DNA of 64,000 nucleotides from a virus: IMG/VR virus record IMGVR_UViG_3300032524_000070; one strand, 5' to 3'. Made by a program: the position numbers and the translations under genes. A model generated the notes under the pieces. It did no database searches and was not told the origin of the DNA. It saw nothing but the letters and a program-made list of their open reading frames with translations. Below, piece by piece: positions 8,241 through 55,406 of this stretch (position 1 is its first letter; each line of letters opens with the position of its first letter).

Positions 8241-8287
8241 GCGTCCGTTCGTTTCCCTATAGCTCCGCAGGGGTAGAGCTTGAACTA

Positions 8288-8306
8288 CCTCTCCTGCGGG
8301 AGATGG
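8288..8306 (+). ncRNA. Copy of recurring leader hairpin CCTCTCCTGCGGGAGATGG
   Basis: Identical 19-mer at 49559..49577. Confidence 0.55.
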
Positions 8307-8322
8307 ATCATGGAGCAGAACG

Positions 8323-34311: not shown

Positions 34312-34319
34312 GAGCGAGC

Positions 34320-34559
34320 ATGGAAGAGGTCCGCCACAAGACGGCGAAGGCGTGGGTCGAGGCCATCGACAAGAGTCACGAGCTGGAGCCCGGCGACGAC
34401 GCCCGGCGGCGATGCCTCGGGTTCTTCGACCACACGGACGAGAAGCACCACATCCTGAGCATCACCCTGGCGAAAGCCACCGGCAAGGCGCTGGGTGATC
34501 AGAGGGAACTCCTGAAGACCCCGGAGGGCCGCGCGAAGCTCATCGAGGGCCGTGCCTGA
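34320..34559 (+). CDS. Hypothetical protein
   Basis: AGGAG RBS. Confidence 0.6.
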   Translation: MEEVRHKTAKAWVEAIDKSHELEPGDDARRRCLGFFDHTDEKHHILSITLAKATGKALGDQRELLKTPEGRAKLIEGRA

Positions 34560-34987
34560 TGCCCCTCTACACCTTCCAGTGCGAGTGCGGCGTCCAGTTC
34601 GATGCCCGTGCAGCCATCGCCGACCGGGAGCAGACGAAGCCCTGCCCCGCCTGCCCGGAGCAGGGCAGGCCCATCCCCCCGTCCGGTGTTCACGGTCACT
34701 TCAAGAAGGAGGTGACCGGCCCCGTGCCGCAGAACACGGGCATCCACGACCTCGACACGAAGATCGACCGCGTGATCGGGCAGTCCAGCCACCAGGGCTG
34801 GGAGGTGGCCGAGGGGCGGAAGCGGATGAAGGAGGAAGTCATGCACCGTGAAGGCGTCACGGGCCACGACCTCTCCAAGAATCTCGACGGCTCCTACCGG
34901 GTGCTCAAGCCCGAAGAACGGGGTCTGCATGAACGCAGTCAGGCGATCCACCAGGCTGCGGGCGAGCGCAACAAGCCCAAGGGGTAG
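34559..34987 (+). CDS. FmdB-like zinc-ribbon protein
   Basis: MPLYTFQCECG...CPAC. Confidence 0.75.
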   Translation: MPLYTFQCECGVQFDARAAIADREQTKPCPACPEQGRPIPPSGVHGHFKKEVTGPVPQNTGIHDLDTKIDRVIGQSSHQGWEVAEGRKRMKEEVMHREGVTGHDLSKNLDGSYRVLKPEERGLHERSQAIHQAAGERNKPKG

Positions 34988-35049
34988 TCGGTAGTTTGAC
35001 TATCCCGCACGCTTATCAGCGAAGGGCAAGTTCGTAGAACGCGCCTCGG

Positions 35050-35185
35050 CACCTCCTCTCCGCACCGGAGATGGCTAGACGGATCAACGACGGAATGAGC
35101 CACAGCTTGTGCTTCCCCTGATGGGGACCTGCCTCCCGCGCTTCGGCGGGGATGGACACGATGAAGCCACACGGACTGACGCTCG
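35050..35185 (+). ncRNA. Structured leader with two hairpin/ACGGA modules upstream of sheath
   Basis: Hairpins 35055..35074 and 35132..35155 (cUUCGg loop); repeated ACGGA/ATGGA. Confidence 0.55.
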
Positions 35186-35217
35186 AACCCTGTTGACCCT
35201 TCTCGTGAGGTGCCCTG

Positions 35218-40527: not shown

Positions 40528-40581
40528 TTCAATGATTTCAACCACTTAGGTCCCTTCATCGGGCCGGGTGGTTGATAGTCG

Positions 40582-40610
40582 TTGACTAAGTATCGGGCAG
40601 TCCGTATCTT
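40582..40610 (+). promoter_or_regulatory. Sigma70-type promoter giving leaderless mRNA
   Basis: TTGACT-17-TATCTT, then 7 nt to ATG 40618. Confidence 0.65.
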
Positions 40611-40617
40611 CCGGGGT

Positions 40618-41958
40618 ATGGACTGCCCGATCTGCCCCACGACTGTCGTTGACGCCCGAGGGCTCGCGACCCACTTCCGCCATCAGGATGCGACCCACCC
40701 CGTCTACAAGACGTGGCAGGAGGAGCAGCGGTGGGCCGGGAAGGTCGAGGGGGAGGACTACATCGTCTGCCTGGAGTGCGGGCATCGAGCGGGGACGCTG
40801 GCCCGGCATCTGAAGGCGGTTCACGGGATCACGGCTGACCAGTACCGGGTGAAGCACGGGGACGTGCTCATCCGGGCCACCAGCGTCACGGAGAGGCGTC
40901 GGGAGGCCATCCAGAGTGCGCGGACTACCTCGACTGCTTACGACGGCTTCAAGAGCGTCGTGTGCCCTTCCTGCGGGGAGGGGCACGAGGTCCACAAACT
41001 GTCTGGCGTGGTGCCTTGCCCTGAGTGCAAGGAGCGAGCGGTGGCAGCCCACTGGGAGGGGAAGTCGGAGCCGGACGACTTCGTCGTCTGCCTGGAGTGT
41101 GGGTACCGGGCTGAGAACCTGACGAGCCACATCCAGAACGCTCATCCTGGGTACCGGGAGAGGCATCCCGATGCCTACATGGTGGCGTTGGGGTCTGCCG
41201 TCAGGGACAAGTCCGCGTTGAAGGGCCGCAGGCGGTCACCCGAGTTCAAGCAGGCCATCCGGGAGGCGAAGACCATCGGGCTGACCCAGGGGGACTTCGA
41301 GCCCTACCTGGAGGCTGACGGCACGGTGGACCATCGACGTGCGATGGAGGGCTTGATGGTCGCGTGGCCGACGCTCAAGCGGTACATGGACGACCTGGGG
41401 TTGAGCCCCACCGACAAGTACATCCGGCAGCGACAGGCCGAGCGGGTGGTGACCCTCACGGTGGAGGGTCTGGAGGCATTCAAGCTGAAGAACGGGAAGG
41501 TGAGCGTGGGCCAGGCCGCGAGGGACATGGGCTACTGCTTCAGGACGGTCAAACGGGAGTGCGACCGTCTTGGGCTGCCGACGTTCCATCGCCGAATCCG
41601 TCAGACGCTCTGCCTGGACGCCGTGTCAGAAGCCCTCGGTGGTCTGGACTACGCCGAGGAGTGGAAGTCCTGGCGGTTCACGAACCCTCCCACGGGTCAT
41701 CGGTTCCGGTTCGACGGCTACTTCCCGGACGTGGGGTTGGTTGTCGAGTTCCAGGGGCACCAGCACTACACGTTCCCGAACGCCTTCATGGTGGACGAGT
41801 CATACCGGGGGGAGTGGGAGGCCATGGTGGAGCGGGACCGGATCAAGCGGGAGCTGATCGAGGCGGCTCCCGATCTGCTCTACCTGGAGATCCGGGAGGA
41901 CGAGCCGTTCACGGACGAGATGTACCTACGGGGTCGTCTCGCTGGGCTGGGTCAGTAG
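40618..41958 (+). mobile_element. Free-standing endonuclease (multiple Zn fingers + Vsr/DUF559-like domain)
   Basis: CLECG..L..H repeats; RFDGYFP...VEFQGHQHY...RDRIKR. Confidence 0.75.
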
Positions 41959-42254
41959 CCCGAATCGTCATCGTCTGCGTAGCCGGTGCCACATTCCTGA
42001 ACACACTCATTCGACAGGTAGACCTGGTCGAAGTACCTGGTGCATGAGCCCCTGGAGACGCAGCGCAGGAGGCAGTCGTTGACTCGTGCCTCGTCCTGGT
42101 TGAGACCGTCCGACACGTCCTCACAGACTGCCGTTGCGCTGGCGACGGTCCAGCCATCCCCCAGGTCTTCACATTCGTCAGCCTTCTCGTAGAACTGGCG
42201 ACAGGGGGTACAGCCCGCGAGGAGGGCCAGGGCGAGCAGAAGAACACGGTTCAT
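41952..42254 (-). CDS. Cys-rich lipoprotein
   Basis: MNRVLLLALALLAGC lipobox; ends ADDDDSGY. Confidence 0.7.
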   Translation of the reverse strand: MNRVLLLALALLAGCTPCRQFYEKADECEDLGDGWTVASATAVCEDVSDGLNQDEARVNDCLLRCVSRGSCTRYFDQVYLSNECVQECGTGYADDDDSGY

Positions 42255-42277
42255 GTGGCTCCGGTGTGATCGAGCGG

Positions 42278-42976
42278 TTAGCGGGGAGGGCTTCTGTAGT
42301 GGCCTCGGACGTAGGTGCCATCGGCTCTGTAGTAGCCCTGCACCTGGACGGTCTTGGCTGCTCCGGTGTAGCCACTGGTGTCTCCGTAGCATGAACCGTT
42401 TTCAGCACAGCCAGGGGCGTAGGACACCGTCCTTGTCGAGCTTGATGACGGGTATGTGTACCTCGGTGTCGGCTCGATCCTGGGCAGGTTCGTGTAGATG
42501 TCTGTCGCCTTGTAAACGGGCGAGGGTGCTGCGGGGGCAGGGTCGAAGTAGTTGGAGCAGATCCTCTCGGAGAGGTGGCCCTTGTCACACAGGGCTACCA
42601 GCGTCCGTTCGGAATCGGTGAGGTTTGCAGCGGCGACTGGTGTCGCTGCCATGGGAACCACAGTCGCCTGTCGCACCTGAGCCGTTCGGCCTAGCCAGGA
42701 GGGGCACTGGACCTGACCAATCTGCTCATTGCTCTGGAAGTAGCAGGCGGACCCGGACTTGAAGATCCGCCCTTTCAGGCCTGTGCTCAGGTGCAGAGCA
42801 CAGAGGCTTCCAGCAGCAGTGAACACCACATCGTTCGGGTGCTCTGCACAGGTGAAGTACGCTGAGCACGAACCGCTATCTGGGTAGGTGGCCACGGTGC
42901 AGGGGTCGGCTTGTGCCACACCCACGTTGAACATGAGTCCAAGCAGGAATGCGAGAAGGCTGAGTCGAGTCATCAT
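42278..42976 (-). CDS. Secreted Cys-rich protein
   Basis: Signal peptide ending AQA; C-terminal CAENGSCYGD...VQGYYRADGTYVRGHYRS. Confidence 0.7.
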   Translation of the reverse strand: MMTRLSLLAFLLGLMFNVGVAQADPCTVATYPDSGSCSAYFTCAEHPNDVVFTAAGSLCALHLSTGLKGRIFKSGSACYFQSNEQIGQVQCPSWLGRTAQVRQATVVPMAATPVAAANLTDSERTLVALCDKGHLSERICSNYFDPAPAAPSPVYKATDIYTNLPRIEPTPRYTYPSSSSTRTVSYAPGCAENGSCYGDTSGYTGAAKTVQVQGYYRADGTYVRGHYRSPPR

Positions 42977-42997
42977 GGTCTCCCGTCGTCTGACCCT

Positions 42998-43025
42998 ACT
43001 ACGGGCCACATCGACGTTCTGAGCC
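42998..43025 (-). promoter_or_regulatory. Promoter GGCTCAGA-N14-CGTAGT
   Basis: Exact consensus. Confidence 0.8.
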
Positions 43026-43039
43026 CCTTTCTGCACAGG

Positions 43040-43069
43040 TTGACACACCTGCTGGGGCTGCCTTACGCT
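43040..43069 (+). promoter_or_regulatory. Sigma70-type promoter
   Basis: TTGACA-18-TACGCT. Confidence 0.55.
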
Positions 43070-43226
43070 GTGTTCAGCGCGACTACGCTGAACCTCATGG
43101 GCTCTCCCGCCTGAGACCCTCCAGGGGCAAACCGGACTCAGTCCGAGGTCGATCAACCACGGTTGAACTCAGCACGGCTCATCGAAGAAGGCGGACTTCG
43201 CAGAGTGGTGCGTGGAGTTCCCGATC

Positions 43227-43922
43227 ATGAGCGACAACAAGAAGCTGAAGACCGCCACCCGCGAGCGCATGGCTCGCACGGGTGAGAAGTACACCACGGC
43301 CAGGATGCACCTGCTGGGTCAGCAGGGCGTGAGCCGCGAGGAGAGGATCAGGAGACTGGTCGCCCCCTCACCCACTGGGATCTTCACCGACCTGGCCACC
43401 TGGGTCATCTGCAAGGACGGGGAGGAGCCGGAGGGCTTCTTCCGTCTCCCGCACAGGGGCATCATGGGGCTGCGAGCCCTCGTAGAGCCGAAGCACTACA
43501 GCACCCTCGGCCCGAAGATGCGGAGCTACGGGGAGCCGCCCGCCGTCTACTTCGAGGGGCGGGTGGAGGCGTGGGTGGAGTGGGGTGCCGAGCAGGGGAT
43601 CGCTCTGCTCAACGTCACGGACATCGCAGGCGACAGGGATGCCATCGAAGAGTTCCTGGGCCGTCTCGGTGTGCCTGCTCCGGGTCAGGCCCCGGAGGGG
43701 CACCTGTTCCCTCGTGGGGATGTCTGTTGTCGGGCCAGGGGAGACGAGTGGGCTGAGTTGCCCGTCCCCCTGACCTCGGTGTCCAGCCGCAGCGTGATCC
43801 GAAGGCCCACCACCGGCTCCGCACTCGGTACCACCAGTCCGTACTCATCCGGCCCCGGAGAGGCCATGCCTCTCCCACGATGTCGAGTAGCTCGGCCCCA
43901 CGGAGCTTCCACATCCACGTGA
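43227..43922 (+). CDS. Hypothetical protein (RERMARTGEKYTTAR N-terminus); 3' end uncertain
   Basis: GGAG RBS; C-terminus overlaps an opposite-strand ORF. Confidence 0.5.
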   Translation: MSDNKKLKTATRERMARTGEKYTTARMHLLGQQGVSREERIRRLVAPSPTGIFTDLATWVICKDGEEPEGFFRLPHRGIMGLRALVEPKHYSTLGPKMRSYGEPPAVYFEGRVEAWVEWGAEQGIALLNVTDIAGDRDAIEEFLGRLGVPAPGQAPEGHLFPRGDVCCRARGDEWAELPVPLTSVSSRSVIRRPTTGSALGTTSPYSSGPGEAMPLPRCRVARPHGASTST

Positions 43923-44111
43923 TGACGGCTCCGTGGGCCATGGCTTCCGGCCAGACGGCCCGGATCGCTGCGTCGGCCTCAGCCCAGGATGAGGCGCGTA
44001 GCTTCGGCCCGGCGAGCCCCATGGGGTCACCTCCAAGCTGCCCTCGTCGGAGGATGACCGCGCGAGCCTGTAGGCCCGAGGCGGGGTCCGGGGATGAGCC
44101 TCTGACCTCGC

Positions 44112-44453
44112 CTAGCGGATGCTCACGGTCGTCTTGGTCTCGACGGTGAGCTTCGCAGCGACCTTCAGCACCGCGAAGACGGGCGGCTTGTGCCCGTAGG
44201 AGTGCTTCGGCACCTCCGATAGTTCGTCCACCTTCGCCTGGAGGATGGCCTTGTCGGTGGTGACCCAGTGCTCGAAGGTGTCGGTGGTGACGGTGTGGGC
44301 GGGGTAGCCGTGCCCAGGAGCGGTACGGCTCCGCTCGTCACCTTCAACGTAGGTTGAGTCGGTCTTGTAGACGTGGACTGCGAAGTGCGGTCCTTCGGGG
44401 ATGTCAGCGGGGGTCTTGACCCTGTTCATTTCGGTGCTCCTGTTCGTGTTCAC
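44112..44453 (-). CDS. Hypothetical protein
   Basis: Coupled ORF. Confidence 0.6.
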   Translation of the reverse strand: MNTNRSTEMNRVKTPADIPEGPHFAVHVYKTDSTYVEGDERSRTAPGHGYPAHTVTTDTFEHWVTTDKAILQAKVDELSEVPKHSYGHKPPVFAVLKVAAKLTVETKTTVSIR

Positions 44454-45385
44454 ACTCGGTCCAGGACCGACCCACCAGCGGCGGGCAGCAGGTCGAGGAC
44501 GCGCTCCTCTGCATCGCGGAGCCGTTCCGTCAGTTGCTTGATCTCAGCAGCCTGATTCTCGATCTGCCGCTCAAGCGCACCTTTGGTCTGACGCATATCT
44601 GTGTCGGCGGCGTTCTGCCTGTCCATCGCCTCATGCCACCGCTGCTCTGCGGCTTCGGTCGCCTTGTTGGCAGCCTTGACCTCCAGCTTCATCGAGTCGT
44701 AGTCCACCATTCCAGCCCGGTGCTTATTGGCCTGCTTGCCAGCGAGCTTCACGTCGATACGGGCCTTCCCCTTGGGGAAGTAGTGGCCCCACACCCCATG
44801 GCTGGAGATGATCTTGGCGACATCGGAAGAGCAGAGGGTCAGCCGGGTCTTCTGACCCTCCGATCTCCATTCGTTGTACCAGACCTCAGTGTCAGGCCCC
44901 AGGTAGCTCAAGTTGGGGAACAGGAAGCGAAGCTCCGGCGGCTTGAATACTCCTTCCAGCTTGACGGGCTCCGTCATGTAGGGCCGAACCGAGCAGGAGT
45001 CGCTGTCCCCACACCACCAGTGCCCGCCGTTGTCCTGACGCACACTGGTCAGACTGCCCGGCGAGAGGTGTCCATCAACCGAGTCCTTCGTGCGTCGGGA
45101 GTTCTGCGGGAGTCCGATCTTCGGCAGGTCGAACATCCGGGGGGGCGGCGGCGTGAACTCTCGGGCCTCCCGGAAGTGCTGCTTCTGGGCAGCCGTGAGC
45201 CACAGCTCCTCGACATCGCCCGTGTGGCAGTTGAACAGGGGGTAGCTGACGTAGACATTCAGATCCGCCGACGTGATGTACGTCACCCCTTCCAGGGTGA
45301 CCCGCGACACCACCTTGGCGTAGTGGTGCGTCACTGCAAACATCGAGTCGCCTTGGAATAAGAATGCGCGGGTCTCCTTGTCCAT
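44450..45385 (-). CDS. Hypothetical protein with C-terminal coiled coil
   Basis: ATG 6 nt downstream of promoter (leaderless). Confidence 0.65.
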   Translation of the reverse strand: MDKETRAFLFQGDSMFAVTHHYAKVVSRVTLEGVTYITSADLNVYVSYPLFNCHTGDVEELWLTAAQKQHFREAREFTPPPPRMFDLPKIGLPQNSRRTKDSVDGHLSPGSLTSVRQDNGGHWWCGDSDSCSVRPYMTEPVKLEGVFKPPELRFLFPNLSYLGPDTEVWYNEWRSEGQKTRLTLCSSDVAKIISSHGVWGHYFPKGKARIDVKLAGKQANKHRAGMVDYDSMKLEVKAANKATEAAEQRWHEAMDRQNAADTDMRQTKGALERQIENQAAEIKQLTERLRDAEERVLDLLPAAGGSVLDRV

Positions 45386-45391
45386 GGGGCT

Positions 45392-45419
45392 ACTACGCTC
45401 CTGGTCGATGGTCTGAGCC
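45392..45419 (-). promoter_or_regulatory. Promoter GGCTCAGA-N14-CGTAGT
   Basis: Exact consensus. Confidence 0.8.
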
Positions 45420-45668
45420 CTACACGTTGAGGGCTTCCAGAGCCCTCCTGACGAGCTTCCAGACGGGGTAGCTGAGCCGTGGGTAGTCGAGTACCTCGGC
45501 GGTCTTAGAGACCGTCTTGGGGCTCCCCTTGCGCATCAGCCGGATGGCGTAGTCCCCCCGCTTCGCACCCTTGCCGGTCCAGCTCGTGTTGTGGATGAGC
45601 ATCCGACCGATCTCTTTCGCCTTGCTCTCCCGGCCACCGGGCCACATCTCGATCTTGATGACGAGCAT
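45420..45668 (-). CDS. Hypothetical protein
   Basis: MLVIKIEMWPGG; TGATG coupling. Confidence 0.6.
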   Translation of the reverse strand: MLVIKIEMWPGGRESKAKEIGRMLIHNTSWTGKGAKRGDYAIRLMRKGSPKTVSKTAEVLDYPRLSYPVWKLVRRALEALNV

Positions 45669-46351
45669 CAGCCAGCCGGTCCCTCGATGAGCCACGACTT
45701 CGCTGCGTCCTGCCAGCCGGGGCGGTTGTCATCCAGCCACTTCCGGGCCTCTGCCTCTGCCGCGCACTGCACGTCGCGGTTCGCCCTGTCCATCCCTTGC
45801 CGGACCTCGACGGGCATGTCGTCGGGGAACGTCAGGTAGTAGACGGAGTAGTGCTCGTAGTGGTTGATGTCGTCGCGGGAGTGCGGATAGGCCACCGGGA
45901 AGGACTTGATGGCCCCACCCCTGTCGAGCACCTGGACAATGCCGTGCTCCGGCCCGGTCTCCAGCAGCCTCACCTTGTAGCGAGGGATGACGGAGCCGCT
46001 GACCGGCTCCCACCCGTGGATGTGCCACCGCATCCGCTGATGCCCATCAGCATCGAACAGGCCATTGTGCCCGCCGCCGCCGTGACCTTTCGCCACCCAC
46101 CCTTCGGGGAGCCGCACCTTGAGGGTGCTCTCTGACCCGATCAGCTTGAGGATCTTGCCTTCCCCGATGATCTCGATGCCCCAGGCTTCGATGGCCTCAC
46201 GGAAACCACGACAGTCCCGGCCTTCCGGGATGGACCCTTCGGCCTCCTTGCGGGACATGGCGACGGCTGTGTCCAGCCCTCCCTGGCAGTCACCACCCAT
46301 CGAGATGCCGATGGCTGCGAGGAAGAACGGGTTGTCGGTCTGTCCTGCCAT
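45668..46351 (-). CDS. Hypothetical protein
   Basis: AAGGA RBS; promoter upstream. Confidence 0.65.
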   Translation of the reverse strand: MAGQTDNPFFLAAIGISMGGDCQGGLDTAVAMSRKEAEGSIPEGRDCRGFREAIEAWGIEIIGEGKILKLIGSESTLKVRLPEGWVAKGHGGGGHNGLFDADGHQRMRWHIHGWEPVSGSVIPRYKVRLLETGPEHGIVQVLDRGGAIKSFPVAYPHSRDDINHYEHYSVYYLTFPDDMPVEVRQGMDRANRDVQCAAEAEARKWLDDNRPGWQDAAKSWLIEGPAG

Positions 46352-46372
46352 AGTGGTTGTTCCTTCCTCGCA

Positions 46373-46400
46373 ACTACGCCTGGCCCCCGTCGTCTGAGCC
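46373..46400 (-). promoter_or_regulatory. Promoter GGCTCAGA-N14-CGTAGT
   Basis: Exact consensus. Confidence 0.8.
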
Positions 46401-46448
46401 CGGTTTCTAGTTGATAGTCGGGGGGAGGTAGAACCCTGGAGGCTTCCG

Positions 46449-46850
46449 ATGACGACCCCCCTCAATGATGACCGCGAGGTGCCCGAGCGCATTGCTCGCG
46501 TGATCGACCGTCTGGCTGATGCCTACATCAGGATCACTCGTCAGGCGGCGGCCGTCATCGTCGGCGACATCTTCGAGGCGACCTGGGGCCACGAGCAGAC
46601 CAACGTGGACTTCTATCAGGTGACGGCCACCACGCCGAAGATGGTGAAGATCCGCAAGATCAAGTCGAAGGTCAGCCGCAAGGGCGGGGACATGGACTAC
46701 TGGGTCATGCCGGTCGCCAACACCTTCGACGGGCCGGAGCTACGCAAGAAGCTCGACGAGTACCGGGGCACCCCGTTGGTGAAGATCACCAGCTACGCCC
46801 TCGCCTACAAGTGGAACGGCAAGGAGAAGCACGTCACCACCTACGGCTAG
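46449..46850 (+). CDS. Hypothetical phage protein (WGHEQTNVDFYQV)
   Basis: GGAGG RBS; late-type motif upstream. Confidence 0.65.
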   Translation: MTTPLNDDREVPERIARVIDRLADAYIRITRQAAAVIVGDIFEATWGHEQTNVDFYQVTATTPKMVKIRKIKSKVSRKGGDMDYWVMPVANTFDGPELRKKLDEYRGTPLVKITSYALAYKWNGKEKHVTTYG

Positions 46851-47947
46851 CTCGCCTTGCGGTTCATCTCCGCGATCATCTCCTGGTGCTTGCTGATGTC
46901 CTGGCCGCCGGGAGCGTCGGGGTCGTTGAACAGGGCGATCCGCAGCTTCCGCTCGTGCTCCTGGTTGAGCGCACCGAAGTACCCACTCAGCGTCATCCCA
47001 CAGGCCCTCGCCCGAGCGATGTGGCTCACCCGAACGGCCTCGGTGACGCTCTCCCAGTCGTAGGGGCCGGGGACCTTCTCGCCCTCGGGCTCCTCCGCTT
47101 CGGTGGGCTCATCCTCCACCTCCGGGAGGGTGTTGATGGTGAACCCGAAGGGGTCGTCGGGCTCCTTCTCGTCGTCCTGGAGGATCTGGCCGAGATGGAG
47201 CGGGAGCAGGTCGTCCTCATCCGGCAGGGCCGGGGGAGCCTTGCCACTGGTCGCCCACCCGTCGTCGTCATCGTCGATGTCCGCGAGGGCGTCCGCGACC
47301 AGAATGTCCCTTGGGGCGGGCGAGCCCTTGTCCGGCAGGCTCTCGTCCAGCAGGCTCTCGGAGCACTCCTCGCACAGGCTCTCGTCGTTGAGATCGTCGG
47401 TGGCACCGCCGCAGCCCTCACACTGGTCGGGCTCGTCGTCCACTTCGATGCCGCAGGCGGCGTAGGTCGGCGTCCGGCTGCTGCGGTCCTCGACCACCGT
47501 GCCTGCCTCGACCAGATCGGACAGACCGCGACGGGCTGAGTCCAGGGAGATGTTGGAGATCGCGGCCACCTCGCGGGGGTTCGCCGGTCCCTGACCGAGC
47601 CGGAGCCGCTGCTGGAGCACGGCGAGGGACACCAGCTCCTTGTAGTTGTCGATGAACTTGTCCGAACAGGCGTCGAGCCCGTCCAGCAGATCGGCCATCT
47701 GCGACCCCTTCGGCGTGAACAGGTACTCGCCGTCCTCCAAGGTCAGCAACCCCTCCCCCGTCGTCATGCGCTGGAGGATCTGATCCAGAGCACCGGGGGC
47801 GATGTACGCCCGGCTGTAGCTGCCCGGAGCGTCCTTCCGCCGGGCCATGATGAACGCCGAGATGTGTTCGGCCTTCGTCTCGTGGTCGGCGACAGCTCGC
47901 TCACGGATGATGTAGAGGACCTGGAAGGTGCGGGCGTTGATGGCCAT
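46847..47947 (-). CDS. Putative winged-helix protein with acidic region and Cys cluster
   Basis: REVAAISNISLDSARRGLSDLVEAGTV wHTH pattern; AGGAG before ATG 47947. Confidence 0.55.
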   Translation of the reverse strand: MAINARTFQVLYIIRERAVADHETKAEHISAFIMARRKDAPGSYSRAYIAPGALDQILQRMTTGEGLLTLEDGEYLFTPKGSQMADLLDGLDACSDKFIDNYKELVSLAVLQQRLRLGQGPANPREVAAISNISLDSARRGLSDLVEAGTVVEDRSSRTPTYAACGIEVDDEPDQCEGCGGATDDLNDESLCEECSESLLDESLPDKGSPAPRDILVADALADIDDDDDGWATSGKAPPALPDEDDLLPLHLGQILQDDEKEPDDPFGFTINTLPEVEDEPTEAEEPEGEKVPGPYDWESVTEAVRVSHIARARACGMTLSGYFGALNQEHERKLRIALFNDPDAPGGQDISKHQEMIAEMNRKAS

Positions 47948-48058
47948 GTCGGTGTCTCCTGAAGGCATCTGGGTCATCTACCCCTGGCCCCACCTGATGG
48001 ACCCCCTCCCGGTGGCGACCTTCCATGCTGAGTTCGAGCGACTCTGGAAGCTCAACGC

Positions 48059-48433
48059 CTAGTCTTCCCACACCTTCTTGCGACGCGGCTTCTCTACTTC
48101 CGGTCGTGGGATGTGGCTCCAGGTCTTCCCTCTTCCGATGTCCGCGATGGCCTGGCGGGTCACTCCGTAGTCCAGGGCCACGTCCTTCGGCTTCTCCCGG
48201 CCCCTGAGCCGGAGGAGGATGACCGGGATGTCTGTGGGCCTCAGCTTGCAGCCCCGGAGGGTCACATCCGGCGGGTCAGGTCGGTCGAGGTCGGGCCACG
48301 ACTTCCCCTTCACCAGGTTCGATACGGCACCTGCCGTGATCTTGAACTCAGCAGCCAGATTCTTCTGTGACTCACCTTCGGCCACCCGGTCGATGATGCT
48401 CTGAGCCTGGTCCTCTGTGAGGCGCTTGTTCAC
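48059..48433 (-). CDS. Tandem HTH protein (HNH-endonuclease C-terminal-like repeats, no nuclease)
   Basis: Two (K/R)L...A.(F/Y)..T..A...GK(S/T)W repeats; TGGACT-17-TACGCT just upstream of GTG. Confidence 0.6.
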   Translation of the reverse strand: MNKRLTEDQAQSIIDRVAEGESQKNLAAEFKITAGAVSNLVKGKSWPDLDRPDPPDVTLRGCKLRPTDIPVILLRLRGREKPKDVALDYGVTRQAIADIGRGKTWSHIPRPEVEKPRRKKVWED

Positions 48434-48545
48434 GCGGACAGCGTACTCCGAGCCCAAAATCAAGTCCATTTTGATTCTCGCTAGGGCTTCTATACGCCAC
48501 GGGTAGTGAGCGACAGGCGAAGCCCCCGCCCTACGGAGAACGATC

Positions 48546-49412
48546 ATGCCGAACATGGACAATGGCCCCGCGAACGGACTGGGAGGTTCCTCGTACCTCT
48601 ACGATTTCGGGACCTCTCCGAACACGCGGACGGCGGTGAGCCAGAAGGTGCGCCTGCTGACGCCGCACTACGGGTCGAGCGCAGCGATGCACCAGATGGG
48701 TGTCGTCTCCAGCTTCAACCCCTCGCAGAGCCGGACGGTCGAGCCCGTGCGTGGCGTGGGCTTCGGCGACCAGATCGCTGAGCTGGTGCCGAGCGTGACG
48801 GAGCCCACCACGGGTTCCTTCGAGCGTGCGCTCCTGTACCTCTGCAACCTGTGGCAGGCCACGGGCTACGCCTCGGGTGTGGACGGGCCGGTGCGGTCGC
48901 TGGCCCACCACAAGTGGCCGTTCGACATCGAGCAGCAGCTCGTCTTCTCGACGCTGGCGGACATCGACCTCGGGGCAGCGAACAGCGGGCACGCGGGCGG
49001 CACGGGCTCCTTCGACGGTGGTGTCAAGCAGACGGTCTACCCGGCGGTGACCCCGGACTTCGGCACGGCTGGAGGCCCGAGCGGACACGGCTCCGGTGGT
49101 CCTGCCACGGCTCCGGGAGCAGCCCGTGGTCACTCGGCCATCATCACCATCTACGAGGCCTGCTGGTTCACCTCCTGGTCCGCCACGTTCGCCAAGGACA
49201 GCGGCATGATCATGGAGTCCGGCGACGTGACCGTCTCCGACGTTCACGACTTCGCCTCGATGTACGGCGAGTTCCTGGCGACGGGCAACGATCCGACCAT
49301 CGGGCAGCTCGGTTCCATCCGCTTCGGTGAGAGCGACTCCGGCTTCCAGATCGCGCAGGTCGGTGGCGACCTGACGGGTGGTTCGCCGCAGTCGCCCTTC
49401 ATCAACACGTAG
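48546..49412 (+). CDS. Tail tube protein
   Basis: PVRGVGFGDQIAELVPS, WPFDIEQ, TIYEACWFTSWS; position before chaperones and tape measure. Confidence 0.75.
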   Translation: MPNMDNGPANGLGGSSYLYDFGTSPNTRTAVSQKVRLLTPHYGSSAAMHQMGVVSSFNPSQSRTVEPVRGVGFGDQIAELVPSVTEPTTGSFERALLYLCNLWQATGYASGVDGPVRSLAHHKWPFDIEQQLVFSTLADIDLGAANSGHAGGTGSFDGGVKQTVYPAVTPDFGTAGGPSGHGSGGPATAPGAARGHSAIITIYEACWFTSWSATFAKDSGMIMESGDVTVSDVHDFASMYGEFLATGNDPTIGQLGSIRFGESDSGFQIAQVGGDLTGGSPQSPFINT

Positions 49413-49454
49413 CCGTCCGGGACAAGTAGCCGGGCTGGGTAAGATGTAGACGAC

Positions 49455-49625
49455 CACCTCCCCCATCAGGGGGGATGGTTCATGTGACCACGGAAACAGC
49501 CGGTGGCCCCTCAACGGACCAAACGGACAAATGTGACGACCCCCGCTTGCTCTGTACTCCTCTCCTGCGGGAGATGGCTGGATGTGCTGACGACGGAAAC
49601 GGCCTGATCACGACCGCTTGTTCTG
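49455..49625 (+). ncRNA. Structured intergenic RNA with two tandem hairpin/ACGGAA modules
   Basis: Modules 49457..49501 and 49559..49604, about 100 nt apart; four ACGGA. Confidence 0.55.
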
Positions 49626-49667
49626 TCCAGAGCCCCCGCTGCTGTTCCCGACAACAACCTGGGGAAC

Positions 49668-50867
49668 GTGCAGATGCAGATCGACTTCAAAGCTCTGGAG
49701 CAGGCTCTTGCTCCCATCGAGGAGATCGGCCAGGGCGAAGTGACCTTCGAGGCCGCCTCGACCACCATCACCTTGCGCGTTCTACGGCCCGCCGAAGAGG
49801 TGGAGGCACAGAGGTACGCCGCTTCGGTGTTGAAGGACGATGTCGAGGGCGACCACTCTGCGGTGGACTACCTCGACCGCTTCCGTATCGCCTGCCTGTC
49901 CCACTCCGTCGTCGCCATCGGTGACCTGGACTTCCGGGGCCTGGAGTACGTCGAGACCGGCGACAAGCTCCCCAACGGGAGCCCCATCAAGGTCACCAAG
50001 TCGAAGGCGATGCGGACGCTCCTGGCTCGTTGGACTCGGGCCACGCTGACGGTGGTGTACTCGAAGTTCAGTGACCTGACCACCTCGTCGGAGGTGGAGG
50101 CAGAACGCCTCATCGAGTACACGCCTTCGGACCTGTCTGCCGAACTCGACCGGCTCAACAAGCGGGTGGCCGAGATCACGGCGAAGATGGAACAGGAGAA
50201 GATGATCGAGAAGGCGAAGTTCAGCGACCAGGTGGAATCGATCTCCAAGGTCACCACCGACGCCATGAACCGGCCTCCCGCCACACCGGCCATCGCCGCA
50301 CCCGAGCCGGAACCGGAGGTGGACCCGGAACAGGCGTTGCCAGCCGCATCCCGCCGCACCGGCCCCATCAGTCCAACCACTGCCCCGCCCCCGGCCGCCA
50401 GGGAGCCCCGTGCTGCCCAGCCTGCTCCGGCACAGCAGCCGCTCCACCGGACGCCCCCGCCGCGTGCGGACTCGTCGTTCATCAACCCCGATGATGACGA
50501 CGGGATGAACGCTGCTCTCGACGCAGAGCACAACCGCATCCTTGCCATGCGTCGGCAGGCGGCAGCAGGCCAGCCCACTGTGGATGATGCGTCAGCTCTG
50601 GAGCAGATCCACCCGCAGACGGCCCACCGCCGGACGCCACCGCATCTGGAGGCCAAGGAGGCAGAGGATGATGTGGGGGTGCTGGACGCGGCGGCACAGG
50701 CGGCCAAGGAGGTAGGCGAGATCGATGGCAAGCCGGTGTTCGCTCTCCCCGCACAGGACTTGGGGGTGAAGGCCCCTCCCGCTCCGGCTGATGCACGGGC
50801 AGCCATCAACCCCCCGCAGGCATCTGGGTCCGAGAACCCTCGGTTCCAGCGTCGCAAGCAGCCCTGA
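49668..50867 (+). CDS. Putative tail assembly chaperone
   Basis: Position after tube; ITLRVL..EE; Pro/Ala-rich C-terminus. Confidence 0.55.
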   Translation: MQMQIDFKALEQALAPIEEIGQGEVTFEAASTTITLRVLRPAEEVEAQRYAASVLKDDVEGDHSAVDYLDRFRIACLSHSVVAIGDLDFRGLEYVETGDKLPNGSPIKVTKSKAMRTLLARWTRATLTVVYSKFSDLTTSSEVEAERLIEYTPSDLSAELDRLNKRVAEITAKMEQEKMIEKAKFSDQVESISKVTTDAMNRPPATPAIAAPEPEPEVDPEQALPAASRRTGPISPTTAPPPAAREPRAAQPAPAQQPLHRTPPPRADSSFINPDDDDGMNAALDAEHNRILAMRRQAAAGQPTVDDASALEQIHPQTAHRRTPPHLEAKEAEDDVGVLDAAAQAAKEVGEIDGKPVFALPAQDLGVKAPPAPADARAAINPPQASGSENPRFQRRKQP

Positions 50868-50876
50868 TCGAGACGG

Positions 50877-52082
50877 ATGCTCCCGAAGACCACACCAGAG
50901 CAGCGCAGCCGCTTCTACACCGACATCGAAGGACTCCTCTCCCCGGGATTCTTGACGCATTCGGTCGTGGTCAACGGTGTGCGTCTGCATCTGCGGTCCT
51001 TGGGGGCAGGCGACCTCTTCATGCTGAAGGCCCGCACCGAGGGGGCTTCGGGTCGTGAGTGGCGAGTGTGGTCGGTCGCTACGGCCATCTGGATGATCGA
51101 GGGGCGTTCCGTCCTGGGTCACGACGACGTGATCCCCTTCCTGGCCCGGTTCATCCGGGGGCTGCCGAAGGTCACCCTGGAGATCCTGTTCTCGCTCCTG
51201 CTAGGGCTGTGGATGCGGGTGGGGGTTGCCGTGAACTCCACGGAGGTCTTCTGCTTCGAGACGGCTTCCCGCTACAAGTGGAAGACCGTGGGTGCCAGCG
51301 GTCTGATGAACACGGGAGTCCCCGGAGCGAATCGACTCGGGTTCAACGCGGTTCAGCGCATCTGGGTGGCCTTCAACGAGATGGAGGACTCCCGCCGGGA
51401 TGATGAGACGGCGTGGGAGGGCTTCAAGCTGGTCGCCAGCTCCAACGCCCCCAAGGCCGTCAAGAAGCTGGACGACAAGGACACGCAGCGGCGGACGGAG
51501 ACGACGGAGACGCGGCAGAGGCAGCTCGACCTGCACTACTACCAGCGGCTCGGTGTGGTGGACGCCAAGGGTGCTGTCCAGGGCACGGACGGCTCGATGC
51601 ACCGCATCCAGGGTGCCAAGACAGTCGAAGACCTTGAAGAGGAGATGCGTCGGTGGGTCACCGATGATCAGGACCTTCACGACCAGGTGGTCGCCGACTA
51701 CAAGGCCCGCATCAAGGCCAACCGCGAGGCCGAGCAGGCAGAGCGGTCTGCTCGTCGGGCAGCCATCGCAAAGAAGCGTGAGCAGATGGGCTGGGAGGCC
51801 GGGGACTTCAAGCCGCAGCCTCTCGTGGCCATGACCACTCAGCAGCTCCAGCACATGCTGGCTACCCGGGGGCCTGGTCGCCCGGATGGTGTCAGCTTCA
51901 TCCCGAAGGCCCCGAGCGCGGACAGGCTCTACAGCAAGTACGTGAACGAGGGGGCTGGGGCAGGCCAGTTGGAGGTCGTGGACGGCAAGGTGCTGGACAG
52001 CGGAGCGAACCCGGAGACGGATGAACGGACGCTCAACCAGTTGATCAGGGGTCGCAACCCCGCCTTCGGATCGGGGGAGTAA
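50877..52082 (+). CDS. Putative second tail assembly chaperone
   Basis: Position before tape measure; GFLTH..LRSL, QRIWVAFN. Confidence 0.5.
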   Translation: MLPKTTPEQRSRFYTDIEGLLSPGFLTHSVVVNGVRLHLRSLGAGDLFMLKARTEGASGREWRVWSVATAIWMIEGRSVLGHDDVIPFLARFIRGLPKVTLEILFSLLLGLWMRVGVAVNSTEVFCFETASRYKWKTVGASGLMNTGVPGANRLGFNAVQRIWVAFNEMEDSRRDDETAWEGFKLVASSNAPKAVKKLDDKDTQRRTETTETRQRQLDLHYYQRLGVVDAKGAVQGTDGSMHRIQGAKTVEDLEEEMRRWVTDDQDLHDQVVADYKARIKANREAEQAERSARRAAIAKKREQMGWEAGDFKPQPLVAMTTQQLQHMLATRGPGRPDGVSFIPKAPSADRLYSKYVNEGAGAGQLEVVDGKVLDSGANPETDERTLNQLIRGRNPAFGSGE

Positions 52083-52085: not shown

Positions 52086-55000
52086 ATGTCCATCAATGAG
52101 GTGATGAACTGGACGGTAGACCTCAAGGCCAACACCACCCAGTTCATGAAGGACCTGAACGATGCCGCCAAGGGCATCAACATCGAGTTCGACAACAAGG
52201 GGTTGGTCAAGAGCTTCGCCGGGGCGCAGGGCGACATCCAGAAGCTCTTGTCGAACACCGTGGCTGCCGGGGCTACAGCGGGGTTCTCCCACGCGAACGT
52301 CAAGGCCCTGAGCAGCAAGATGGAGGTCATCACCGGGGAGATCGAGAAGTCCCTCAAGGACATCTTCAATCTCCAGGTGAAGGGGTCAACGGAAGCCGCG
52401 AAGGTCTGGGGTCAAACCGTCAAGGATGCCCATGCTAAGGCCCTTGAGGGAGAGAAGGCCAAGCTGGAGGGAGCGGAGCGGCGGTTTGCACTGGAGAAGA
52501 AGAACGCCGAGCGGCTCATCAAGCGTCGCCAGTCCGCTCGCCAGGATGCTGACCGTCTGGAGGACCGGAACGCCAGCGAGCGGGCCAAGGACTGGATGGA
52601 GTCCATCGGCGGGTCGGTCGCCAAGCTGAAGAGCGGGGACCTTGCCGGGGTGCTGTCGGGTGCGGGCAAGGGTGCTGCGGCTCGCGGTGTCGGGATGCAG
52701 GACAAGGCGGCTGCGGCGGGCGATGCCGGTGGGATGATGGGCAAGATGGGCGGCCTCATGGCCAAGATCGGCCCCATCATCGCGGGCATCGGTGCGGTCG
52801 TGGCGGGGTTCGCTGCTCTGGCGGCGATAGTGGTGCTGGTGGACGGTGCCGTGAAGGGCCTGAACAAGACCATGATGGATAGCGGGGTGGCTGGTGCGGA
52901 CATGGCCAACCAGTTCAACCAGCTCGGCAACACGATGGACAACATCCGAAAGTCGGCCAAGGGGTCGTTCGGGTTCAACCAGATCTGGGGTGTGTCCGGC
53001 AAGGACCACCTGGAGATCCTCGGGGCCTTCAACGCGGCGGGTCAGACCATCCACGAGATGGGCACCGAGATGGACCGGCTGCGGCAGTACACCCAGGCTG
53101 CGCTGACGTACAGCAAGCTCCTGGGGCTGAGCACTACGGATGTCAGCTCCTCGACGGCGGTCTACATGGAGGAGCTGGGGATGACCCTGGAGGGCGTCTC
53201 TGGCCGCTTCTCCAACATCACGGCGGCGGCCAAGGAGAGCGGCTTCGGGGTCAAGCGATTCTTCAACATGGTGCTCCAGGCCACGTCGGGGATGTCGATG
53301 TACAACGTCCGGCTGGAGGAGGCCGCCGGACTGCTCATCCAGCTTGGGAAGATCCTGGGCGAGAAGATGGGTGGCGACTTCCTTGCGACGTTGATGAAGG
53401 GCTTCAAGGACGAGGGCACGCAGGACCGCATCAAGAAGACGATCTCGACCGGCGTGGAGATGTCATCCCGCGTCCTCCGCAAGGATGCGGTGGCCTCTGC
53501 CGAGGAGTTCCAGCGGAAGCTGACTGAGCTGTCGGACCAGGACTCTGGCAAGGGAGCGGCTGTTGCCGAGATCCTCAGCCGGTACCAGCTCGACCCCACG
53601 GATGCGGAGGGGTTCGCCAAGAAGCTGGGCAAGATGGCCCCTCAAGAGCTGGGGATGATCACTCAGGAGTTGGCAGCACAGGGCGGTCAGGGCGAGGGAA
53701 TGGCTCGCAGCATGACGGACCTCGCCACGAAGGGTCAGGCCTTCCGGGGCGACCTGGCCGGGGCACAGGCGGCCCTCAGCTCTGCCGGGGGTGGGGCGAC
53801 CTTGTTCCTCCAGCTCAATGAAGCCTCGCGGGTGCTCGGCAAGAGCCTGGACCAGATCGATCTCTCGAACATGGAGCAGCGGGCGGCCTTTGAGAGCATC
53901 ACCGGCAAGTCCGGTGAGGCGGCAGAGCAGCTCCGGCGTATGGGCATGGGTCTGCGTGGCAAGTTCGACCTCATCCAGAAGGCCAACGAAGGTGGGACAG
54001 CGGGCCGGGAAGCCTACAACAAGAGTGGCCTGGCGAAGTCGTTCGGGGTGTTCCTCGACGAGCAGGGGAAGATGTACCGGCTGGATGCCGAGAAGAACCG
54101 TGTGGACATCGGGGACAGCCTCGAAGACCTGTTCATCGGCATCGGGAAGGAAACCCTGGGCAACGAGACGGCACAGAAGGCCGAAGACATCCTGCTGGCT
54201 CGGGAGATCGCCAAGAACACCACGGACATCGCCAGCATCCTTGAACGGGGGATCGAGTGGCTGCTGTCCGGCATCTACGACTCAGTGCAGCGGATTTCGG
54301 GGCTCATGGGTGGTCTGAGTGCCGATGAGAAACGGGGGAAGATCGCGGCTCTTGCGACATTGGGCGACGAGAGCACTGCGGCGATGCAGATGGCCCGAGA
54401 AGCAGAGAGTGACATCGCTGATCTCAAGCGGAGTAGGTCGGGTTCCACCCCAGAAAAGCAGGCTGACATCGACATCAAGATCAAGGCACGGGAGGACGAT
54501 CTCATCCGTGCGGAGATGCAGTCGAAGTCGTTGCTCCGACAGACCAGGAAGATTGAAAGGAAGCAGGACGACTGGGGCATCAAGGGCACCGGGACCAAGG
54601 AGTCTCAGTGGTTGGGCTTCGGGAAGGATGACGAATACAAATACATCGAGAAGGACGCCACGGCGCTGATGGGGCAGGAGCGGATGGACGCTGAGTTCAG
54701 AGCCCCCGGAGCCGAACGGGCTCTTGCGAACCCTGACCTCCAGTTCAACCCGAACCACTACGGAGAGGGCATGGCCGCGAAGTTGACGCAGAGAGCAACG
54801 AACAGTCAGGTTGCACTCGACCTCAAGGAGTGGTTGGCAGACCCCGAGGCCACTCGTAGGGCCGATGACCAGCGGGTTCTGAGGCAGACGACGGCAGAGG
54901 AGACCGCGATTTCCACGCAGACCACAGATCTGGTCTCGTCATGGAAGGACTGGCAGAAGGAGATGAGCCTCCAGGAGGTCTCTGCGGTACTGGCCGGGGC

Positions 55001-55406
55001 CGGGATTGAGGGCGACACGGACCAGATGGCCGCGTCGTTGTTGCGGGGGCAAGTCCCCAAGGGCTTGGACCTGGGTGCGAAGACCGCTGGCGGGATGAGC
55101 CTCTACGACAGGTTGTCGGGATCGAACCCCTCGTCTGAAATGGCTCGGGCGTTGTTCAGTGCTGAACAGGGTGGTCCGAGGGCCGAGGACTTCCTCATGC
55201 AGATCGGGACCGGAGGCCGGGTGAAGTTCGCCCAGCGCATCAGTGCCTCCGACACCGTGACCGCTACGGCATCGAAGCCCGGAGGCCCGATCCAGTCGTC
55301 CGGTCGGAAGGGCTCCGGGGGCTCGACCGTCGTGATCAACAGCTTCGGCAACGCTGCCGAGGTCGTGCGTGGCATCCAGGCAGCCGTGGCGGCGGGGGTC
55401 GTGTAA
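52086..55406 (+). CDS. Tape measure protein
   Basis: Long helical Ala/Gly-rich protein with a hydrophobic segment; canonical position. Confidence 0.75.
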   Translation: MSINEVMNWTVDLKANTTQFMKDLNDAAKGINIEFDNKGLVKSFAGAQGDIQKLLSNTVAAGATAGFSHANVKALSSKMEVITGEIEKSLKDIFNLQVKGSTEAAKVWGQTVKDAHAKALEGEKAKLEGAERRFALEKKNAERLIKRRQSARQDADRLEDRNASERAKDWMESIGGSVAKLKSGDLAGVLSGAGKGAAARGVGMQDKAAAAGDAGGMMGKMGGLMAKIGPIIAGIGAVVAGFAALAAIVVLVDGAVKGLNKTMMDSGVAGADMANQFNQLGNTMDNIRKSAKGSFGFNQIWGVSGKDHLEILGAFNAAGQTIHEMGTEMDRLRQYTQAALTYSKLLGLSTTDVSSSTAVYMEELGMTLEGVSGRFSNITAAAKESGFGVKRFFNMVLQATSGMSMYNVRLEEAAGLLIQLGKILGEKMGGDFLATLMKGFKDEGTQDRIKKTISTGVEMSSRVLRKDAVASAEEFQRKLTELSDQDSGKGAAVAEILSRYQLDPTDAEGFAKKLGKMAPQELGMITQELAAQGGQGEGMARSMTDLATKGQAFRGDLAGAQAALSSAGGGATLFLQLNEASRVLGKSLDQIDLSNMEQRAAFESITGKSGEAAEQLRRMGMGLRGKFDLIQKANEGGTAGREAYNKSGLAKSFGVFLDEQGKMYRLDAEKNRVDIGDSLEDLFIGIGKETLGNETAQKAEDILLAREIAKNTTDIASILERGIEWLLSGIYDSVQRISGLMGGLSADEKRGKIAALATLGDESTAAMQMAREAESDIADLKRSRSGSTPEKQADIDIKIKAREDDLIRAEMQSKSLLRQTRKIERKQDDWGIKGTGTKESQWLGFGKDDEYKYIEKDATALMGQERMDAEFRAPGAERALANPDLQFNPNHYGEGMAAKLTQRATNSQVALDLKEWLADPEATRRADDQRVLRQTTAEETAISTQTTDLVSSWKDWQKEMSLQEVSAVLAGAGIEGDTDQMAASLLRGQVPKGLDLGAKTAGGMSLYDRLSGSNPSSEMARALFSAEQGGPRAEDFLMQIGTGGRVKFAQRISASDTVTATASKPGGPIQSSGRKGSGGSTVVINSFGNAAEVVRGIQAAVAAGVV

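Follow-up and report, generated by a model that had tools for sequence, protein, structure and literature searches.

Introduction

The coat operators of the RNA phages MS2, PP7 and Q-beta are short hairpins with a single bulge, a purine, and specific loops; the replicase start lies inside them and they mediate high-affinity translational repression. Riboswitch expression platforms are built from mutually exclusive sequestor and anti-sequestor helices, and the lambda N/nut (boxA and boxB) and HK022 put elements are antitermination sites, boxB with a conserved GNRA-like loop. In phage Mu, the start signals of mom are buried in a 'translation inhibition structure', which the small protein Com opens by binding to a short hairpin close by; Com is a zinc-finger activator that recognises a CC(N)2-3GAG motif in the loop of its hairpin (PMC6483171). 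The T4 gp43 hairpin operator, the gp32 pseudoknot and RegA stand for repression via operators at or just 5' of the ribosome-binding site, the own mRNA included; RegA sites are A+U-rich and unstructured, and the gp43 operator is read through its loop (PMC3014915). Here we describe a bulged hairpin that occurs five times in a stretch of 64,000 nucleotides (nt) of viral DNA, IMG/VR record IMGVR_UViG_3300032524_000070 (the whole stretch is referred to as the window), in the leaders of three genes: a DUF5659 gene, a tail sheath-like gene, and the gene following a putative tube gene (gene 49674, named after its first nucleotide). The element is very likely a cis-regulatory structured RNA, and the best single model, to which we assign a probability of about 0.5, is a translational switch operated by a protein.

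Functionally, this hairpin system comes closest to Mu Com/mom, the T4 autogenous operators, the RNA-phage coat operators and riboswitch platforms, but it fails the defining features of each. As in mom, the leaders bury the Shine-Dalgarno sequence in predicted structures (in 27 of 27 leaders of gene 49674, and in a predicted helix before the sheath gene), recognition-type hairpins are located upstream, and the sheath leader has a conserved CCCC zinc-ribbon gene as its neighbour. Unlike in Mu, conservation resides in the base of the helix with its bulged pyrimidine and not in the loops, which are free; there are three target leaders instead of one, tandem hairpins and a separate anti-sequestor, and no sequence relationship was found. 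In addition, the hairpins of the leader of gene 49674 (49413-49673) are located ~60 and ~160 nt 5' of the inhibitory stem, and only hairpin 1 (H1) of the sheath leader abuts the Shine-Dalgarno helix. A short hairpin with a single bulged nucleotide is shared with the RNA-phage coat operators. In the present module, by contrast, it is a pyrimidine that is bulged, two pairs away from the base of the helix; the loops vary freely, and 4 to 200 nt separate the hairpin from the ribosome-binding site. With a hairpin 4 nt 5' of its Shine-Dalgarno sequence, the DUF5659 gene conforms to the layout of the T4 operators; a tail-gene regulon and a three-strand Shine-Dalgarno switch, however, occur in none of T4's. 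As in riboswitch platforms, one helix buries the Shine-Dalgarno sequence while in the other the sequestering strand is taken up by an upstream segment, but no known aptamer matches, and the likely input would be a protein on modular hairpins rather than a metabolite. Placement at the heads of long operons and before the gene of a putative regulator recalls nut and put, as may a linear conserved box next to one of the hairpins. In contrast to these, the loops are not conserved (3 to 12 nt), a crude scan showed no enrichment of terminator-like sites downstream, and structures that bury the Shine-Dalgarno sequence are present. The system also differs from CsrA/RsmA targets in that the hairpin loops lack GGA and the conserved GAUGG is part of stem and bulge, although ANGGA is ~4-fold enriched in the leaders relative to the window. 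We rate the hairpins as a new RNA family and regulon built on familiar principles.

Results and Discussion

A bulged hairpin recurs in the leaders of three genes

The pattern CCTCYC-N3-12-GRGATGG has exactly five matches in the window, all of them on the + strand, compared to 0.39 expected from shuffled sequence; none of 100 shuffles reached five. These matches are the five hairpins that a sequence-only reading of the window had located. Each consists of 5'-CC, a stem, a loop, the returning stem, one bulged U and GG-3', with stems of 6-10 base pairs (bp). The leader elements, target genes and zinc-ribbon gene discussed below also lie on the + strand. Copy 1 (8288-8306; CCUCUCC-UGCG-GGAGA[U]GG) ends 4 nt 5' of the Shine-Dalgarno sequence of the DUF5659 gene (GGAG, 8312-8315). 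Copy 2 (35055-35074; CCUCUCCG-CAC-CGGAGA[U]GG) and copy 3 with its extended stem (35132-35155; CCUCCC[G]CGC(UUCG)GCGGGGA[U]GG) represent H1 and hairpin 2 (H2) of the sheath leader, and covarying stems at the position of copy 2 are kept in the sheath leaders of relatives. Copy 4 (49457-49478; CCUCCCCC-AUCAG-GGGGGA[U]GG) and copy 5 (49559-49577; CCUCUCC-UGCG-GGAGA[U]GG) are H1 and H2 of the leader of gene 49674.

The other particulars of the sequence-only reading were borne out as well. All five copies are situated in non-coding gaps 5' of genes, of ~165 nt (DUF5659 gene), 230 nt (sheath gene) and 260 nt (gene 49674). The loops differ as claimed (UGCG, CAC, AUCAG, and in copy 3 a stem extension with a C(UUCG)G cap), and the tail ACSACGGAA follows three copies, at 35087, 49487 and 49590, with N3-GCC next each time; about one occurrence is expected. 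The change between CUCC/GGAG and CCCC/GGGG stems, described as covariation, is real in the window and far wider in relatives. A conserved peptide, which that reading had already doubted, is ruled out by indels and variable loops in an alignment of 16 sequences. Copies 1 and 5 are, letter by letter, one identical 19-mer (CCTCTCCTGCGGGAGATGG). They match even in the loop though 41 kb apart, while the counterparts in the relative G003 differ from each other; this hints that, in this genome, the two copies were recently matched by gene conversion or are kept identical by selection. The sequence-only reading further proposed that the module coordinates the stoichiometry of tail proteins, which may be so, but among the targets the DUF5659 gene has no known role in the tail.

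Three simpler readings of the motif were rejected. The AUG within GAUGG is missing in the clade with a bulged C and is not a gene start. The mini open reading frames AUGUGA and AUGUGCUGA after the hairpins are not kept in relatives, so that they were dismissed as functional upstream reading frames. A role of the stem as an anti-Shine-Dalgarno mimic (CCUCC) was discarded since stems of the GUGGG/CCCAC type exist.

The hairpin is conserved and covaries in uncultured huge phages

The protein encoded by gene 49674 has 47 homologues from metagenomes, and alignment of the homologues of this gene yielded ~55 distinct loci (IMG/VR and JGI metagenomes). Because many of these contigs span 100-620 kb, the phage clade bearing the hairpin module consists of uncultured huge phages. 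Two hairpins of the same design occur at approximately -213 and -115 from the ATG in 15 relatives whose proteins are merely 45-87% identical. In the 16-sequence alignment the 270-nt leader has a mean column identity of 69%, which is above that of the protein. Distant clades (~35% protein identity, 44-66% GC) keep at least the second hairpin, the counterpart of copy 5, together with the flanking boxes and a hairpin that covers the ribosome-binding site. Near-invariant parts of the module are its two basal C-G pairs, the bulge and the next pair up; the upper stem varies in length and sequence yet remains paired, and the loops are free. The bulged nucleotide is U, or C in one subclade.

Independent evidence for the module comes from the regions upstream of DUF5659 genes. 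The gene in the window (8323-8574, 83 amino acids; Pfam PF18903, E = 6.3e-8) has 54 homologues with identities of 52-95%. In 24 of the 53 distinct upstream regions, a CC-stem-[U/C]-GG hairpin of at least 6 bp was present within 80 nt, compared to 1.5 in shuffles, 2 in the reverse complement and 4.8% in other windows of the same loci. The bulge was U in 20 of these hairpins and C in 4. Wholly different stems occur before the DUF5659 homologues (CCUGUGGG/CCCACA[U]GG, CCCUGCUCC/GGAGCGG[U]GG and CCUUCCGGC-UUCG-GUCGGAA[U]GG), the pair adjacent to the bulge may be U:A, C:G or G:C, and loops range from 3 to 12 nt with variable sequence.

A covariance model (R1) was built from nine hairpin copies; it was suited to the close clade and too specific for distant genomes. 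Within the window, R1 had significant matches at 49449, 49551 and 8280 and a weak one at 35055, and no further real copies were found. Copy 1 scored 18.9 bits (E = 6.6e-4) and copy 4 68 bits; weak matches at 27408, 20448 and 4250 were rejected as they are not hairpins. In the model-made alignment of 38 copies, 99.7% of the cells were paired, and this value dropped to 42-79% when the partner was slid by 1-3 columns. One position is C:G in 19 copies and U:A in 15, and none of 500 shuffles reached the covariation score. This alignment was fitted to the structure, and for this reason we regard the DUF5659 upstream set as the stronger evidence.

The structure belongs to the RNA rather than to duplex DNA, since G-U pairs are frequent, C(UNCG)G tetraloops recur, and the hairpin was found in 24 of 53 DUF5659 upstream regions on the sense strand versus 2 of 53 on the reverse strand; the opposite strand is unable to form the structure. 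No match was obtained when the whole window was searched against Rfam 15 at gathering thresholds, and a permissive scan of both long leaders returned chance-level rows only (E >= 0.5, scores far under the gathering thresholds). Full-text literature searches gave no description of the hairpin element, of DUF5659 or of relevant huge-phage leader RNAs. Thus, the recurrent structured RNA module proposed from the sequence alone stands: it is kept at fixed positions in dozens of huge-phage contigs, covaries in related phages, belongs to leaders that follow late-type promoter-like motifs, and matches no Rfam 15 family. We concluded that the element is real and conserved and had not been described.

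Mutually exclusive helices are predicted around the Shine-Dalgarno sequence of gene 49674

The leader of gene 49674 (49413-49673, ~260 nt) contains copies 4 and 5 and two CGCUUGYUCUGU boxes. The conserved box CGCUUGCUCUGUAC (49544-49557) abuts the 5' side of copy 5, and its second copy, CGCUUGUUCUGUCCAG (49615-49630), is conserved in relatives. Downstream of the boxes, GCUGCUGUUCCC (49638-49649) is predicted to pair with GGGGAACGUGCAG (49661-49673), forming a hairpin (49638-49673) that ends at the ATG at 49674 and would sequester the Shine-Dalgarno sequence. In folding predictions the Shine-Dalgarno sequence was paired in a hairpin of 10-12 bp ending 0-3 nt before the AUG in all 27 leaders, and their last ~60 nt folded at -13.6 to -26 kcal/mol (62 nt). 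The arms of this hairpin covary between clades and differ in sequence (CUGCUGUUUCC/GGGGAACGNGCAG; GACUUGCUCCAC/GUGGAGACAGUC; GUUGUUUCCUUU/AAAGGGAAUAAC), and at fixed columns 81.2% of the cells were paired versus 33-56% when slid.

A candidate anti-sequestor, GGAAACAGCCGGUG (49492-49505), is located within the tail after copy 4 (ACGGAAACAGCC) and is complementary to 49638-49649. Every upstream 14-nt window of each leader was scanned against the 5' arm of the sequestering hairpin. In 26 of 27 leaders the best duplex occurred at the homologous position, with energies of -11 to -17.6 kcal/mol, and the paired sequences vary by clade (GGAAACAGC:GCUGUUUCC; GGAAGCAGC:GCUGCUUCU; GAGCAAUCGG:CCGACUUGCUC; ACAACC:GGUUGU). 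At fixed columns of a MAFFT alignment (A9), 88.7% of the anti-sequestor cells were paired versus 33-64% when slid. This pattern suggests that segment 49492-49505 acts as an anti-sequestor. Mutually exclusive sequestor and candidate anti-sequestor helices, a feature of riboswitch platforms, are thus conserved across the relatives; as pairing of the anti-sequestor with the arm excludes the Shine-Dalgarno hairpin, the leader follows riboswitch-platform logic. In the ON state the anti-sequestor would hold the sequestering strand, and in the OFF state the local Shine-Dalgarno hairpin would form.

A -10-like motif, GGGTAAGAT (49437-49445), lies 12 nt before copy 4 and is kept here in all clades. Its core GGGTANNNT occurs eight times on the + strand versus once on the - strand of the window, several times just 5' of genes (+ strand sites include 12132, 15252, 17793, 27733 and 49437), and may be the -10-like element of a promoter class other than the CTATAC type. 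Because GGGTANNNT is strand-biased and often precedes genes, the leader possibly has its own promoter; otherwise it would be an intercistronic spacer. The gene itself (49674-50867, 397 amino acids) is located between the putative tube gene and a tape-measure-like gene (52086-55406, assigned by a weak PhageMin_Tail match), and its product had no match in Pfam or PHROG. Two copies of its homologue (L171 and L176) occur ~280 kb apart on a single contig, Ga0080013_1000001 (552 kb).

A long-range helix is predicted in the sheath leader

The sheath-like gene (35218-40527, 1769 amino acids) matches the tail sheath family phrog_2839 (E = 1.1e-22). Its leader (34988-35217, ~230 nt) comprises, in this order, CTATCCC, GGCACCUC, copy 2, GA(U/C)GG repeats, a middle hairpin, copy 3, GAGGUGCC and the ATG, and all of these elements are kept in relatives. 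The promoter-like core CTATCCC (35000-35006), with GGTAGTT upstream, corresponds to GTTAGTT-N3-CTATNC in the sheath leaders of relatives. The middle hairpin (35114-35127) reads UCCCC-UGAU-GGGGA here, and UCUCC-UUCG-GGAGA or similar in relatives.

The segment GGCACCUC (35048-35055) is the predicted partner of the Shine-Dalgarno region GAGGUGCC (35207-35214), which is followed by the ATG at 35218; C35055 is common to this segment and the base of copy 2. Pairing of GGCACC(UC) with GAGGUGCC ~150 nt downstream was predicted in agreement by the minimum free energy folds of 16 sheath leaders, a best-complement scan and the RNAalifold consensus. In the RNAalifold consensus, a single nucleotide separates the start of H1 from the helix in which the Shine-Dalgarno sequence is paired.

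Three to five GA(U/C)GG(A) repeats spaced by 4-8 nt occur 3' of H1 (35075-35110; also in the relatives L299, L300, L303 and L308), and RAYGG is ~3-fold enriched in the leaders relative to the window. The repeats may constitute a second, single-stranded recognition element.

The DUF5659 gene heads its own unit behind copy 1

The DUF5659 gene is the first gene of its transcription unit. A terminator-like hairpin with a U-rich tail (8200-8242, + strand; GUGCCCGUGGAC...GUCCACGGGCAU followed by CGGUGUUUCUGG) ends the unit upstream, and the relative G003 (L202) has an equivalent hairpin at the same place. Copy 1 is preceded by a late-type promoter-like motif (8257-8279, + strand; CCTATAGC-N9-GGGGTAGAGC), and the same arrangement is found before DUF5659 homologues. 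Putative late promoters of the form (G)TAGTT-N3-CTATAC, often with GTAG ~10 nt further on, precede + strand genes at 4101, 8257, 14689, 26634, 32293, 35000 and 48490.

Variants of the upstream hairpin occur among the homologues. In the AT-rich relatives L224, L229 and L232 (43-44% GC), a hairpin built to the same plan, CCUUUUCUA-UUUU-UGGAGAA[U]GG, includes the DUF5659 Shine-Dalgarno sequence (GGAGA) in its 3' arm. Another subclade (L322, L323, L256, L258, L261, L263-L266 and L274) has, instead of the bulged hairpin, a longer perfect one embedding GGGTAGAGT or GGGTACGAT. In two genomes with the longer perfect hairpin (G011 and G012), the post-tube gene is also without a long leader.

A proposed protein-operated translational switch

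The five hairpins are copies of one module, which we propose to be the docking site, or operator, of a phage-encoded RNA-binding protein. Its small regulon, made up of the sheath gene, gene 49674 and the DUF5659 gene, would be controlled at translation initiation. In this model the ribosome-binding site is hidden either by the local hairpin of 10-12 bp (49638-49673) or by the long-range helix of the sheath leader (35048-35055/35207-35214), and pairing of 49492-49505 with the sequestering strand would free it in the leader of gene 49674. Protein on the hairpins would bias the RNA towards the closed or the open fold, and copy 1, directly before the DUF5659 ribosome-binding site, would allow autoregulation. 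Binding of a protein, its identity, and whether it activates or represses are the parts of the model that we infer. A helix base that stays the same, bulged pyrimidine included, while stem and loop vary, and that recurs on its own before the ribosome-binding site of another gene, is the signature of a protein operator. A specific reader is favoured because a need for stability alone would not keep the base invariant. Of the two possibilities left by the sequence-only reading, a cis-regulatory RNA or a protein-binding operator, the operator is the best reading of the sequence-specific helix base.

The DUF5659 protein is the leading candidate binder since the hairpin in its own leader suggests autoregulation. 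In the subclade in which C is bulged in the DUF5659 hairpin, all three genomes of this kind also show a bulged C in the hairpin of the post-tube leader; one more genome of the subclade is mixed, with U at the DUF5659 site and C at the post-tube site. Among 17 genomes in which both sites were readable, which are related and do not represent independent events, the module was present at both sites in 14, at neither in 2, and before DUF5659, with the other leader unclear, in 1. Co-occurrence and bulge identity, along with the small size and strong conservation of the protein, lend weak to moderate support to DUF5659 as the putative binder. The second candidate is the product of the FmdB-like CCCC zinc-ribbon gene (34559-34987, 142 amino acids; Zn_ribbon_8, E = 1.4e-7; phrog_1076). 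Wherever a relative's sequence extends far enough upstream, this gene is found directly 5' of the sheath leader, with identities of 39-93%; in the window it overlaps the stop codon of the preceding gene.

Several observations weigh against this model or parts of it. About half of the DUF5659 homologues have other upstream hairpins, and DUF5659 is present in genomes without the module in its own leader and in the post-tube leader. The protein has an isoelectric point of ~6.6 and is not basic. Its AlphaFold2 model (pLDDT, the predicted local distance difference test, 81; beta-alpha-beta-beta-alpha-alpha) showed no recognisable RNA-binding fold in comparison to solved structures (Foldseek against PDB, E >= 0.2; VIA-align, Z <= 3.8, noise). 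Searches of the ESM Atlas by shape and by features returned no informative fold match, a PDB profile search gave E >= 0.08 at best, and a ferredoxin-like or EF-G domain V fold was rejected as the corresponding weak rows were within noise. With regard to the leaders, the whole 251-nt leader is no stabler than shuffled sequence (z = +0.18), and the long-range helix of the sheath leader is invariant on both strands in the close clade and accordingly has no support from covariation. Fixed-column covariation of the anti-sequestor is modest, and 4 of 500 shuffles reach its score. The modest counts are due to MAFFT shifting distant clades by one column, and for the anti-sequestor we relied on the per-sequence scan over the diluted columns.

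A bolder extension is that DUF5659 represents a new kind of small RNA-binding protein with the bulged-pyrimidine hairpin as its operator. Together they would form a translational master switch in huge phages, in which the protein autoregulates and, via the three-strand switch, sets the timing or the ratio of sheath and tail-assembly proteins. We regard this extension as tentative and rather doubtful.

To our knowledge, post-transcriptional control in huge or jumbo phages is almost unexplored, and most conserved small proteins of these phages are without known function. The analysis offers a compact, sequence-defined RNA module common to three transcription units and a testable switch architecture whose three parts, sequestering strand, anti-sequestor and ribosome-binding site, are each mapped by coordinate, along with two named candidate binders. 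If the model is true, either DUF5659 or the zinc-ribbon protein would gain a function, the known RNA families would grow by one, and it would become clear how a giant phage adjusts its most abundant tail protein through translation. As a short, orthogonal pair, hairpin and protein could then also serve as a part for synthetic biology.

Alternative explanations

The main rival to the protein-operated switch is that the leaders are self-contained RNA devices, kinetic or thermodynamic gates in which the hairpins are architectural or make tertiary contacts. Such a gate could time co-transcriptional folding, sense temperature or ions, act as a standby platform for ribosomes, or be a riboswitch whose ligand is still to be named. 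The sequestor and anti-sequestor represent the classic, conserved logic of a riboswitch expression platform, the long conserved single-stranded blocks (ACGGA repeats and CGCUUGYUCUGU boxes) could form an aptamer or tertiary contacts, and DUF5659 lacks a recognised RNA-binding fold. However, in many genomes the hairpin alone, without the rest of the leader, stands before the DUF5659 ribosome-binding site, which points to an independent recognition module. In addition, a base kept invariant around a bulged pyrimidine is what protein operators typically show, Rfam yielded no aptamer match, and the global fold is not unusually stable, and we consider a protein-free device unlikely. The hairpins might, alternatively, determine mRNA stability or processing, either by shielding late transcripts from 5'-end-dependent RNases or by marking RNase cleavage that uncouples neighbouring cistrons. 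In the DUF5659 leaders the hairpin starts within ~5-25 nt of promoter-like motifs and hence near a predicted 5' end, which probably also holds for the leader of gene 49674, and the leaders part genes presumably needed in very different amounts. Simple protection, though, requires neither the invariant CC/[U]/GG base nor the bulge, and copy 5 and copy 3 of the sheath leader are ~100 nt inside their leaders, away from the 5' end. As the conserved burial of the Shine-Dalgarno sequence and the anti-sequestor point to control of translation, a role in stability is quite improbable.

The position of the hairpins at the heads of long, tightly packed operons, and before a small conserved gene, would also suit processive antitermination of the lambda N/nut or HK022 put type. 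Such sites would provide read-through in long tail operons, with the regulator's own site placed like nutL before N. The linear box CGCUUGCUCUGUAC directly 5' of copy 5 and its homologues is loosely boxA-like, and the hairpins come as tandem pairs like those of put. On the other hand, a consensus scan, crude for GC-rich DNA, found 5 terminator-like sites versus 6.0 expected in 34000-52000. Moreover, the loops are not conserved as they are in boxB, the box is absent before most DUF5659 hairpins, and antitermination does not require the dedicated structures that bury the Shine-Dalgarno sequence; this explanation appears very improbable. A DNA-only site, which by its own terms would refute the sequence-only reading, was likewise considered: the motif would act in the DNA, as an operator or as part of a promoter, and be read by a DNA-binding protein or a phage RNA polymerase, for example as an N4-type hairpin promoter. 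Several copies are indeed close to promoter-like motifs, and the sequence is an imperfect inverted repeat. But every copy lies on the coding strand, promoter motifs are missing in front of copies 3 and 5, and G-U pairs become A-C mismatches on the other strand, in line with the low count for the reverse complement of the DUF5659 regions. Together with the recurring UNCG tetraloops and stems whose sequence is free while pairing stays, this makes a DNA-level site extremely improbable.

Further features of the window

The window is phage-like with a GC content of ~65%, and many of its open reading frames are without annotation. It has no close relative among deposited phages; the single match was an uncultured phage of 485 kb with 65% identity. 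A locus search for relatives with a single protein gave no match, and a loose DNA pattern scan of viral contigs yielded mostly chance matches, with L009, L032 and L087 as the only true relatives. Two open reading frames, 10146-11468 and 40582-41958, match homing-endonuclease families of PHROG (phrog_3339 and phrog_12131 for the former, phrog_9084 for the latter) and lie inserted among structural genes.

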